From a virus (taxonomy: Duplodnaviria; Heunggongvirae; Uroviricota; Caudoviricetes): a stretch of 4,525 bases of DNA. The translations under genes and the position numbers were made by a program. The notes under the pieces are model-generated. The model worked only from the letters and a program-made list of their open reading frames with translations, was not told where the DNA came from and made no database searches. The stretch lies in the IMG/VR virus record IMGVR_UViG_2671180411_000011; one strand, written 5' to 3'. Numbering within the stretch: position 1 is the first letter of the stretch; each line of letters opens with the position of its first letter. Shown in pieces: positions 1,518 to 2,354 of the stretch.

Positions 1518-1940
1518 ATGGCGAAACCTTTTACTCCCGAACAGCGGGAAGAACTGAAGACGCGAATTGTGGAACTCGTGCATCAGGACGGTCGGGTCAC
1601 GATTCGGCAGTTGTCAGATGAAACAGGTATCAGTCGTGCGTCTGTCGGTCGCTTATGCATAGAACTGGTCGCAAGTGGTGATGTATATAATTCTGGCTAC
1701 GGCTTATTCCCGTCTGAACAGGCTCGCAAGGACTGGCAAAGCGCCCGCAAAAAACTCTCGAGAGTAAAGGTGAGGAAACCGGTTGTTGTTGATCCGGACC
1801 TTATCTGGTCATTACCTGACGGAGAAATACGCCGCTACGACAGGCGCCTGAATATAATCTGTCGCGAGTGCCGGAAGAGCGAAGCTATGCAGCGTGTACT
1901 GGCTTTCTATCAGGGTAATTTTCAGGAGGCGATACTGTGA
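1518..1940 (+). CDS. Hypothetical protein with N-terminal winged helix-turn-helix (DeoR/MarR-like) domain
   Basis: ATG at 1518 with AGGAGG at 1508..1513, 15 nt after the DnaC-like stop. 140 aa; N-terminal REELKTRIVELVHQDGRVTIRQLSDETGISRASVGRLCIELVASG looks like a wHTH. Stop TGA at 1938..1940 abuts the next ATG. Confidence 0.7.
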   Translation: MAKPFTPEQREELKTRIVELVHQDGRVTIRQLSDETGISRASVGRLCIELVASGDVYNSGYGLFPSEQARKDWQSARKKLSRVKVRKPVVVDPDLIWSLPDGEIRRYDRRLNIICRECRKSEAMQRVLAFYQGNFQEAIL

Positions 1941-2354
1941 ATGAAATTAGCTATCAGGCTTCAATTACCGCTGGCATTCGCATCAAAGGAGAGGAGCATG
2001 GAAATAAAACCAGAAGATGAGTTAAGCAATATCGTTTTATTTCCGGTAAAAGAGGATGACCCTCGTAATCAGGTTAATTTTCTTTATGAGCCATCGGAAA
2101 GACCATATTGCCATCACGCCTCTGTACGGGTTGACGAAAAAGAGCGTCAGGTCCGCTGTAAAATCTGCGGTGCGGTTGTGGAGCCGTTTGACTGGATGCT
2201 CTCTGTGGCAAAAAGAGAAACCAGACTGGCAGATGATGTAAGGCTATTGCGCCAGGAGGAACAGGAAAGGCGGAGAAATATAGAAAAGCTGATACAGATT
2301 GAGCGTAACGCGAAAGCGCGGATACGCAGGGCGACAAAATCCAGAACTGAATAA
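1941..2354 (+). CDS. Hypothetical Cys/His zinc-ribbon-like protein with basic coiled-coil C-terminus (alternative start ATG at 1998)
   Basis: ATG at 1941 directly follows the upstream TGA (coupling), with AGGAGG at 1924..1929. The in-frame ATG at 1998 has AAGGA at 1986..1990. Contains C-H-H...C-x2-C (PYCHHASVRVDEKERQVRCKICG) and an Arg/Glu-rich tail. Family not recognised. Confidence 0.6.
   Translation: MKLAIRLQLPLAFASKERSMEIKPEDELSNIVLFPVKEDDPRNQVNFLYEPSERPYCHHASVRVDEKERQVRCKICGAVVEPFDWMLSVAKRETRLADDVRLLRQEEQERRRNIEKLIQIERNAKARIRRATKSRTE

Follow-up and report, generated by a model that had tools for sequence, protein, structure and literature searches.

In phage lambda, the slot directly 3' of the helicase-loader gene P, in the rightward early operon, is occupied by ren, which codes for a protein of 96 aa and overlaps P by 4 nt, an arrangement of co-translation. 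The supplement of a preprint (bioRxiv 10.1101/2021.04.19.439022) describes ren mutants that grow poorly on Rex+ lysogens and whose suppressors map to O and P, together with two-hybrid assays in which Ren binds RexA and RexB, and places ren alongside all initiator/helicase-loader modules. In a second group of proteins, collected in Pfam as DUF977 (PF06163), members appear in phage records as Ren-like, LygF or YdaW family; our search of the literature on DUF977, LygF and Ren-like proteins returned no functional study.

Here we analyze two adjacent genes, ORF1 and ORF2, in a stretch of 4,525 nt (the window) from a Caudoviricetes record (IMG/VR, IMGVR_UViG_2671180411_000011), which is an ordinary cryptic Rac-like prophage fragment bracketed by IS. 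The genes lie downstream of a DnaC-like helicase loader that is annotated ydaV in NZ_CP065615; N at 734-996 masks the 5' part of this gene. As a previous reading of these letters (the sequence-only reading) had pointed out, ORF1 begins 15 nt after the loader stop codon (1501-1503). Both genes are real and intact, lie on the same strand and are under purifying selection, with pN/pS of 0.3-0.4 for ORF1 and 0.03-0.15 for ORF2. We consider it highly probable that ORF1 is the ren gene of the prophage and that ORF2 is a separate mosaic module, so that the two are independent delayed-early lambdoid genes. They would probably be co-transcribed rightward with the replication genes, each being translated from its own ribosome-binding site. 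Scans for promoters and terminators between 1400 and 2600 gave counts not above those of shuffled sequence. The features of the region are collected in Table 1.

Table 1. Features of the ORF1-ORF2 region, in positions of the window.
Feature	Position	Strand	Basis or remark
DnaC-like helicase loader (ydaV-type), 3' part	997..1503	+	Pfam IstB_IS21 9e-19; phrog_50 DnaC-like 6e-64
Shine-Dalgarno AGGAGG of ORF1	1508..1513	+	4 nt ahead of ATG; read from sequence
ORF1, 140 aa, assigned to the Ren family (DUF977 / PF06163; phrog_142)	1518..1940	+	profile matches and hhalign
Winged helix-turn-helix of ORF1 (residues 7-64)	1536..1709	+	Pfam, AF2, Foldseek
C-terminal Ren motif of ORF1 (residues 102-132, ...NIICRECRKSEAMQRVLAFYQ)	1821..1913	+	BLASTP; invariant in DUF977 alleles
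Non-coding spacer ORF1-ORF2, 57 nt	1941..1997	+	mosaic module boundary at ~1969
Shine-Dalgarno-like AAGGAGAGGAG of ORF2	1986..1996	+	read from sequence
ORF2, 118 aa, phrog_1621 family	1998..2354	+	phrog_1621 5.1e-56 from residue 1; PGAP CDS WP_001343130
11-nt perfect inverted repeat	2000-2010 / 2034-2044		inside first codons of ORF2
Zinc ribbon of ORF2 (residues 36-61)	2103..2180	+	invariant columns; AF2 hairpin
Predicted zinc ligands of ORF2	C38 2109-2111, H40 2115-2117, C54 2157-2159, C57 2166-2168	+	conservation
Single long helix of ORF2 (residues 63-117)	2184..2348	+	AF2 and conservation
9-nt inverted repeat, AT-only	2354-2362 / 2374-2382		after ORF2 stop

ORF1 matches PF06163 with 116.5 bits (gathering threshold 22.1) over positions 1-134 of the 134 in the model, and is a plain full-length member of that family with no difference from it. 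It is also assigned to phrog_142, 'Ren-like exclusion protein' (2.7e-44), the same family that recognizes lambda Ren (NP_040633) at 1.6e-41. When the ORF1 profile was compared with the lambda Ren sequence using hhalign, the two aligned (94.5%, E 7.9e-8) over 70 columns that include the winged helix and the C-terminal motif, with an insertion of ~35 residues in ORF1 between these parts; the similarity over the 70 columns is distant (~30%). BLASTP joined the C-terminal motif of ORF1 to residues 73-92 of lambda Ren with 60% identity over 20 aa (E 3e-7). This conserved C-terminal helix motif reads CRECRKSEAMQRVLAFY in ORF1, and both proteins share the pattern (K/R)EC R(Q/K)S(A/E)AM(K/Q)RVLA(V/F)Y in addition to an N-terminal winged helix. 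Because both proteins fall in phrog_142, the motif is found by BLASTP, the profile aligns with lambda Ren, and ORF1 directly follows a helicase loader just as ren follows P in lambda, we place ORF1 in the Ren family; at the level of sequence, it is a homologue of lambda Ren over the winged helix and the C-terminal motif. The sequence-only reading had seen no obvious resemblance of this gene to ren, and in this it was mistaken; clear homology to a ren-type gene is one of the findings that it had itself named as a refutation.

It was right to call the first gene a winged helix-turn-helix protein. The Pfam models HTH_24, IclR and MarR_2 match at residues 11-59, the AF2 model places helices at 7-24, 29-36 and 40-53 followed by a wing (pLDDT >90 over residues 10-70), and a Foldseek search with this model recovered only generic winged-helix regulators, with GntR/IclR/MarR folds (prob ~1). 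Searched by sequence, solved structures gave nothing below E 0.09 for either ORF1 or ORF2, NCBIfam assigned a family to neither protein, and the PADLOC defence models gave only weak generic HTH matches to ORF1 (E >= 0.0017). The ORF1 protein is present, identical or near-identical, on ~1000 contigs of Shigella and E. coli.

ORF1 differs from lambda Ren in several respects. It is 140 aa long rather than 96, it is separated from the loader by a gap of 14 nt and has its own AGGAGG whereas ren overlaps P, the lambda loader is P-like while the one in the window is DnaC/IstB-like, and Pfam DUF977 matches ORF1 but not lambda Ren. YdaW of E. coli K-12 occupies the same slot after ydaV, yet it shows no detectable homology to ORF1 beyond the winged helix (hhalign 3.5%); the retron-toxin 'blocker' phenotype reported for K-12 ydaW is therefore not transferable, and we rejected it for ORF1. 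By homology with lambda Ren, ORF1 would be a small protein linked with the replication proteins, one that permits phage replication despite Rex-type exclusion, probably through protein contacts. Since a Ren-like role would run through such contacts, ORF1 is unlikely to be an operator-binding repressor, although its predicted winged helix could still bind DNA. Replication-accessory or exclusion functions, which had been suggested earlier for the two genes jointly, point in about the right direction for ORF1, Ren being such a factor, but not for the pair as a unit.

The junction between the genes contains the letters TGAATG (1938-1943), from which it had been proposed that the stop codon of ORF1 abuts the start codon of ORF2 and that the two are translationally coupled. 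The letters are there, and an open frame of 137 aa runs from ATG 1941 to a stop codon at 2352-2354; the first codon of ORF2, however, lies elsewhere. PGAP sets the start at 1998, the PHROG 1621 alignment begins at residue 20 of the 137-aa frame, and the homologues in Klebsiella, Serratia, Erwinia and Yersinia all start at the equivalent of 1998. Across differing genomic contexts, homology begins ~29 nt 5' of 1998. The spacer itself varies: ATG 1941 is replaced by GTG in three alleles (TGAGTG; sister DUF977-adjacent alleles), and a 1-nt deletion within 1941-1997 breaks the frame in the allele of O157:H7 TW14359. By comparison, the Shine-Dalgarno-like AAGGAGAGGAG ahead of ATG 1998 is largely kept in each of the E. 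coli-type contexts examined, its first eight bases being invariant in 7/7 aligned sequences and its last three positions carrying substitutions in one allele. Judged from these alignments, ORF2 starts at ATG 1998 and not at 1941, and with a conserved start at 1998 the stop/start coupling fails. An AGGAGG is also found 10 nt upstream of ATG 1941, and a minor, N-terminally extended isoform of ORF2 starting at this codon is possible in the window allele.

We found 148 homologues of ORF2, a protein in which an N-terminal NVVxFP motif precedes a zinc ribbon and a long helix. In the 118-aa numbering, C38, H40, C54 and C57 do not vary in 30 homologues; among 32 very distant ones the three cysteines are unchanged and H40 is >=90% conserved. 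In the AF2 model, residues 43-54 form a beta-hairpin and residues 63-117 a single helix (pLDDT 85-96) that carries the near-invariant LRxEExxRRxNIEKLIQIERNAKARIR, in agreement with the earlier description of a zinc ribbon with a basic helical tail. ORF2 belongs to phrog_1621 (related: phrog_8538 and phrog_4865), with both the CHCC ribbon and the long helix with its ERN-K-RIR motif present; relatives in this family have the common signature C-x-H...R-x3-C-x2-C...E-x3-K-x-R, and an N-terminal peptide of the NVVxFP type is retained as well. In a search of 1.84 billion proteins, distant relatives of ORF2 were also assigned to phrog_1621, and the family with its relatives comprised at least 1636 clusters (50% identity) at E <= 1e-3. 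It spans from enterobacterial prophages to a phage contig of 70% GC, and its members are typically among the last early genes ahead of Q or of the late genes.

No Pfam model matched ORF2 or its relatives at threshold, Foldseek searches of its model against PDB and BFVD gave nothing below E 0.3, and no PADLOC defence model matched it. The best likeness in both Pfam and Foldseek is the TFIIB-type zinc ribbon (PF08271, Zn_Ribbon_TF), also a small beta-hairpin ribbon with two knuckles, which ORF2 reaches below the cut-off (21.5 bits vs 29; Foldseek E 0.3) and which gives sub-threshold matches in 14/30 family members. In TFIIB, however, the ribbon is followed by cyclin folds, whereas ORF2 has CHCC ligands and then a 55-residue helix, and the likeness is a generic fold resemblance only. 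We also considered lambda Ea8.5, whose gene follows ea22 and which has a similar C-x-H-H...C-x2-C pattern, and rejected it as a homologue on account of its different ligand spacing; the best match to ORF2 was a stretch of 9 aa (E 0.035). Ea22 was rejected likewise, as it has no similarity to ORF2 (E 2.8). Against the known nin genes of lambda (NinB-NinI), only 3/30 family members matched NinG, weakly (best E 0.0027), and ORF2 is assigned to none of them.

From this architecture, ORF2 would be a module of the nin/accessory region with a disordered, acidic N-terminus bearing the NVVxFP peptide, the CHCC ribbon, and a 55-residue helix ending in the basic, nearly invariant segment ERNAKARIR. Our best guess, of low confidence, has ORF2 forming dimers through this helix and contacting a conserved partner, be it a nucleic acid or a host machine, with its basic end and its N-terminal peptide. 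We suggest, quite tentatively, that ORF2 represents an undescribed, broadly conserved phage factor which acts on a universally conserved host machine, on nucleic acid at the early-to-late transition, or with an Ea22-like partner.

To place the pair in its genomic context, we surveyed its occurrence in 5426 complete E. coli genomes. ORF2 is present in 1679 of them (2135 places) and DUF977 in 3617 (5014 places); in 975 the two are contiguous. No other single context of ORF2 is as common in E. coli as this junction, which accounts for about half of its occurrences; the other half of the ORF2 places have another gene upstream, and ~80% of the DUF977 places lack the junction. An alternative order in E. 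coli is DUF977 - DUF4406 - Ea22-like - ORF2. Among 79 usable loci from IMG/VR, the gene directly 5' of ORF2 is DUF977 in 42, always with a gap of ~57-70 nt, and Ea22-like in 21. In Klebsiella, Kluyvera, Erwinia, Pantoea and Photorhabdus, the gene preceding ORF2 is NinG, RusA, DUF1364-like or unknown, ORF2 itself lies immediately ahead of Q, and tblastn found no DUF977 adjoining it in these loci. The upstream gene overlaps ORF2 at an ATGA in six loci (Kluyvera, three of Erwinia, Pantoea and a Klebsiella phage). The contexts of distant relatives are thinly sampled, the genome-contig scan having given 12 loci and the viral-contig scan having kept near-identical E. coli loci only. Separate winged helix-turn-helix genes lie 1-2 kb upstream of ORF2 in some non-Escherichia loci. 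The pair is thus a frequent but non-obligate neighbourhood, and outside Escherichia/Shigella other genes take the place upstream of ORF2. A functional link between ORF1 and ORF2 within the E. coli lineage is possible.

The Ea22-like neighbours raise the question of whether the functional tie of ORF2 is to Ead/Ea22-like proteins and not to Ren; it might, for instance, be a partner of theirs or a C-terminal extension module. In E. coli prophages, ORF2 directly follows the Ea22-like gene with an overlap of 11-23 nt, the same order and overlap recur in the Stx phage ArgO145 and in Tyrion, a distant Enterobacter phage (33% identity), and proteins in which the N-terminus of Ea22 is fused to ORF2 exist (P0002, P0283). 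Such fusions are rare, though, and they may be products of recombination or of a frameshift; ORF2 does not resemble lambda Ea22 or Ea8.5 in sequence, and many contexts are without an Ea22-like gene, among them the window, the loci of Klebsiella, Erwinia, Pantoea and Photorhabdus, and the high-GC phage contig. We regard this tie as unlikely.

A sequence-specific transcription factor role for ORF1, acting on the nearby dyads to regulate ORF2 or the downstream nin genes, appears still less plausible. This role, in part anticipated by the proposal that the dyads are targets of the winged-helix protein, would agree with the high-confidence winged helix, with its fold matches to GntR/IclR/MarR repressors, and with the two inverted repeats, one at the start of ORF2 and the other after its stop. 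The 11-nt repeat, however, lies within coding sequence, is missing from non-E. coli homologues, has one arm mutated with no compensating change in one locus (L008), and moves with the ORF2 module and not with DUF977; it does not stand out when folded as RNA (z = -1.3), and we rejected it as a regulatory hairpin or operator. The 9-nt dyad consists of A and T only, no repeated operator-like motif was found, and the known phenotypes of Ren concern replication and Rex, not transcription. Nothing links either of these short repeats to ORF1.

Finally, the idea that ORF1 and ORF2 are coupled in translation and make up a two-protein module, working as a unit in regulation, replication or exclusion, is largely refuted and very improbable: the genes are adjacent on one strand, their junction keeps a constant spacer in E. 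coli, and even where E. coli has the alternative order, DUF977 is usually found within 1-2 kb upstream as part of the same operon, but the conserved start of ORF2, the indel and ATG/GTG variation in the spacer, the mosaic breakpoint that separates the genes, the many DUF977 and ORF2 places without the junction, the other genera in which ORF2 overlaps different genes, and the lack of a PADLOC defence model matching ORF1 or ORF2 all speak against it.

With ORF1 read as the ren gene and ORF2 as a separate module, the locus itself is of little importance, as what had seemed a novel coupled pair becomes ordinary lambdoid mosaic biology. The DUF977 or 'LygF' proteins, which roughly two in three complete E. 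coli genomes carry, can be tied by sequence to lambda Ren, and their long form offers an additional handle on the Ren mechanism. The ORF2 family, very common in phages and without a Pfam model, could deserve a family description.

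ORF1, the winged-helix gene 3' of the DnaC-like helicase loader, is a relative of lambda ren. Its boundaries agree with the sequence-only reading: the loader gene stops at 1503 and ORF1 runs from 1518 to 1940, preceded by AGGAGG. The winged helix was confirmed by Pfam matches to HTH_24/IclR/MarR at residues 11–59 and by an AF2 model with pLDDT >90 over residues 10–70, for which Foldseek returned GntR/IclR/MarR-type domains. ORF1 belongs over its whole length to Pfam DUF977, scoring 116.5 bits where 22.1 are required, and matches phrog_142, the "Ren-like exclusion protein" family, at 2.7e-44; the retrieved sequence of lambda Ren (NP_040633) matches the same family at 1.6e-41. 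BLASTP identified a C-terminal motif common to ORF1 and Ren (NIICRECRKSEAMQRVLAFY vs. NLVFKECRQSAAMKRVLAVY; E 3e-7), and the DUF977 profile aligned with Ren at 94.5% probability (E 7.9e-8) across both the winged helix and this motif, although DUF977 has an insertion of ~35 residues that Ren lacks. Moreover, Ren occupies the same slot, directly 3' of the loader gene. Homology to a ren-type gene had been set beforehand as grounds for refuting the sequence-only reading, in which neither gene obviously resembled ren; for ORF1, that reading is wrong.

According to the preprint by Thomason et al. (bioRxiv 10.1101/2021.04.19.439022), a ren gene is found with every initiator/helicase-loader module. 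Growth of ren mutants on Rex+ lysogens is poor, with suppressors that map to O and P, and two-hybrid assays show binding of Ren to RexA and RexB. By homology, ORF1 would act like Ren: a small protein associated with the replication module, it would counteract Rex-type interference, probably via protein contacts made with its winged helix and conserved C-terminal helix. YdaW of E. coli K-12 (L109, 3753–4313) lies in the same slot after ydaV and also has an N-terminal winged helix, but beyond this domain it shows no detectable homology to DUF977 or Ren (hhalign 3.5%). We therefore rejected the transfer to ORF1 of the retron-toxin blocking reported for ydaW, and for the same reason consider the label "YdaW family" misleading when applied to phage DUF977 proteins.

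The surrounding 4.5 kb are 99.7–99.8% identical to a Rac-like lambdoid prophage of E. coli FDAARGOS_943, whose gene order is Cro/CI-like, YdaT-like, O-like initiator, ydaV (DnaC-like loader), DUF977, a hypothetical 118-aa protein, QueH, hokD/sok, a phrog_340 ORF and DUF1367/NinB-like. The initiator of the window differs from the intact NZ_CP065615 gene by 6 gap positions and has a poly-A run at ~309–316; this prophage copy is probably replication-defective. The DUF1367/NinB-like gene (from 4147) is interrupted at 4453, where its frame continues into IS sequence. The reference element, a 1.27-kb IS3-family insertion in comparison locus L004 (966–2236) with orfA of 100 aa and orfB of 272 aa, is one that we take to be IS600-like. 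Given the split initiator and the IS termini at both ends, the window is a decayed, IS-bracketed prophage fragment. QueH, a tRNA-modification enzyme gene, fills a phage accessory slot within the prophage's nin region. Identical ORF1 and ORF2 proteins occur on ~1000 contigs each, mainly from Shigella and E. coli, and purifying selection acts on both genes (pN/pS 0.3–0.4 for ORF1 and 0.03–0.15 for ORF2).

Features in the window and in comparison loci (L-numbers)
Feature	Position	Remarks
O-like replication initiator	80–733	Broken across three reading frames
IS3-family termini	1–106 and 4454–4525	Sequence at either end of the window corresponds to the termini of the 1.27-kb element
11-nt perfect inverted repeat (GGAAATAAAAC / GTTTTATTTCC)	2000–2010 / 2034–2044	Begins at the G of the ORF2 ATG, within the first 16 codons
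9-nt inverted repeat	3' of the ORF2 stop	AT-only
QueH (epoxyqueuosine reductase)	2502–3188	Pfam 1.9e-65, phrog_3217
hok/sok type I toxin-antitoxin locus, complete	3246–3421 and 3416–3571	Rfam sok match, 117 bits; then hokD with mok leader
Ead/Ea22-like + ORF2 loci	L021 3591–4329; L022 3591–4386; L016 2489–3857; L019 2121–3396	

The sequence-only reading had taken ORF1 and ORF2, the zinc-ribbon gene that follows, as a translationally coupled pair. The TGAATG at 1938–1943 is present and no stop interrupts the frame between 1941 and 2354, but five lines of evidence show that ORF2 starts at 1998 and not at ATG 1941. The PGAP call, of 118 aa, begins at 1998, and the PHROG 1621 alignment begins at residue 20 of the 137-aa ORF. 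Homologues in Klebsiella, Kluyvera, Serratia, Erwinia, Yersinia and Salmonella all start MTTETExELSNVVxFP, at the equivalent of 1998. Where ORF2 stands behind other genes, homology begins only ~29 nt 5' of 1998, including the Shine-Dalgarno site AAGGAGAGGAG, with no in-frame ATG farther 5' in these loci. Three diverged DUF977-adjacent alleles have TGAGTG in place of TGAATG, and in the allele of O157:H7 TW14359 a 1-nt deletion within 1941–1997 shifts the extension out of frame. Thus, 1941–1997 is a 57-nt non-coding spacer that holds a recombination-module boundary, and the extension is not a conserved feature. At most, a minor N-terminally extended isoform might be made from this allele, since AGGAGG lies 10 nt 5' of ATG 1941.

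Nor do the two genes behave as a unit, as each is widespread without the other. Of 5426 complete E. coli genomes, 1679 carry ORF2 (2135 places), 3617 carry DUF977 (5014 places) and 975 have the contiguous junction, so that ORF2 follows about one fifth of DUF977 genes and DUF977 precedes roughly half of the ORF2 copies. The main alternative order in E. coli is DUF977, DUF4406, Ead/Ea22-like and ORF2, the last two overlapping by 23 nt. The gene directly 5' of ORF2 was DUF977 in 42 of 79 usable IMG/VR loci, always with a gap of ~57–70 nt, and Ea22-like in 21; an Ea22-like gene also precedes ORF2 in Stx phage ArgO145 and Enterobacter phage Tyrion. In Klebsiella phage ST15-VIM1phi2.1 and in Kluyvera, Erwinia, Pantoea and Photorhabdus loci, ORF2 is the last or nearly the last nin gene before Q, behind NinG, RusA, DUF1364-like or unknown genes, and tblastn detected no adjacent DUF977. 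ORF2 shares an ATGA overlap with the preceding gene in six loci (Kluyvera, three Erwinia, Pantoea and the Klebsiella phage). Translational coupling of ORF2 is therefore real, but it is seen in other genera and with partners other than ORF1. Each gene is a mosaic module of its own; the two often adjoin in E. coli because both inhabit the hypervariable stretch just 3' of the replication genes. ORF2 linkage with Ea22-like genes is possibly more conserved than that with DUF977: homologues are repeatedly located directly 3' of Ead/Ea22-like genes with overlaps of 11–23 nt, even in the distant phage Tyrion, and fusion proteins (P0002 and P0283) join an Ea22 N-terminus to ORF2. The connection of ORF2 with Ea22-like proteins is a possible lead.

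Only two inverted repeats, both short, lie within 1400–2520, and nothing connects either to ORF1, whose targets such dyads had been proposed to be. The 11-nt repeat is unlikely to have arisen by chance and moves with the ORF2 module; other genera lack it, and it is not conserved beyond E. coli-type alleles. In locus L008 one arm carries a mutation that the other does not compensate, and the RNA fold of the repeat is unremarkable (z = −1.3). Promoter and terminator scans gave counts no higher than in shuffles.

The predicted architecture of the ORF2 protein was borne out: AF2 models a zinc ribbon and, after it, one helix (residues 63–117, pLDDT 85–96). Residues C38, H40, C54 and C57 are invariant in 30 homologues; among 32 far more distant ones the three cysteines remain so and H40 is conserved in at least 90%. 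ORF2 matches the function-unassigned family phrog_1621 (5e-56), with no match at threshold in Pfam, NCBIfam or PADLOC and no relative among solved structures; Foldseek found nothing below E 0.3, the closest resemblance being a generic TFIIB N-terminal ribbon. Searching 1.84 billion representative proteins with a profile retrieved 1636 clusters at E ≤ 1e-3, of which 242 reach E ≤ 1e-10, and all 10 distant members sampled belong to phrog_1621, none of them to a Pfam family. One relative (179 aa; L103, 5001–5540) lies among small early genes on a 70%-GC phage contig, ~1.4 kb 5' of large terminase-like (599 aa) and Mu-type portal genes, which indicates that the family reaches very distant phage groups. 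Its signature is C-x-H ... R-x3-C-x2-C ... E-x3-K-x-R, and most relatives also have an acidic N-terminal stretch carrying an NV(V/I)xFP-like peptide. As a low-confidence guess, ORF2 probably oligomerises through its helix, and the basic C-terminal end of that helix, which scarcely varies, might together with the N-terminal peptide contact a conserved partner (nucleic acid or a host machine).

Rather than a coupled novel pair, the locus holds ordinary lambdoid prophage content, namely one gene of the known Ren/DUF977 family and one accessory gene that is catalogued but uncharacterised. The only mildly interesting remainder is that the ORF2 family is large, uncurated and functionally blank.
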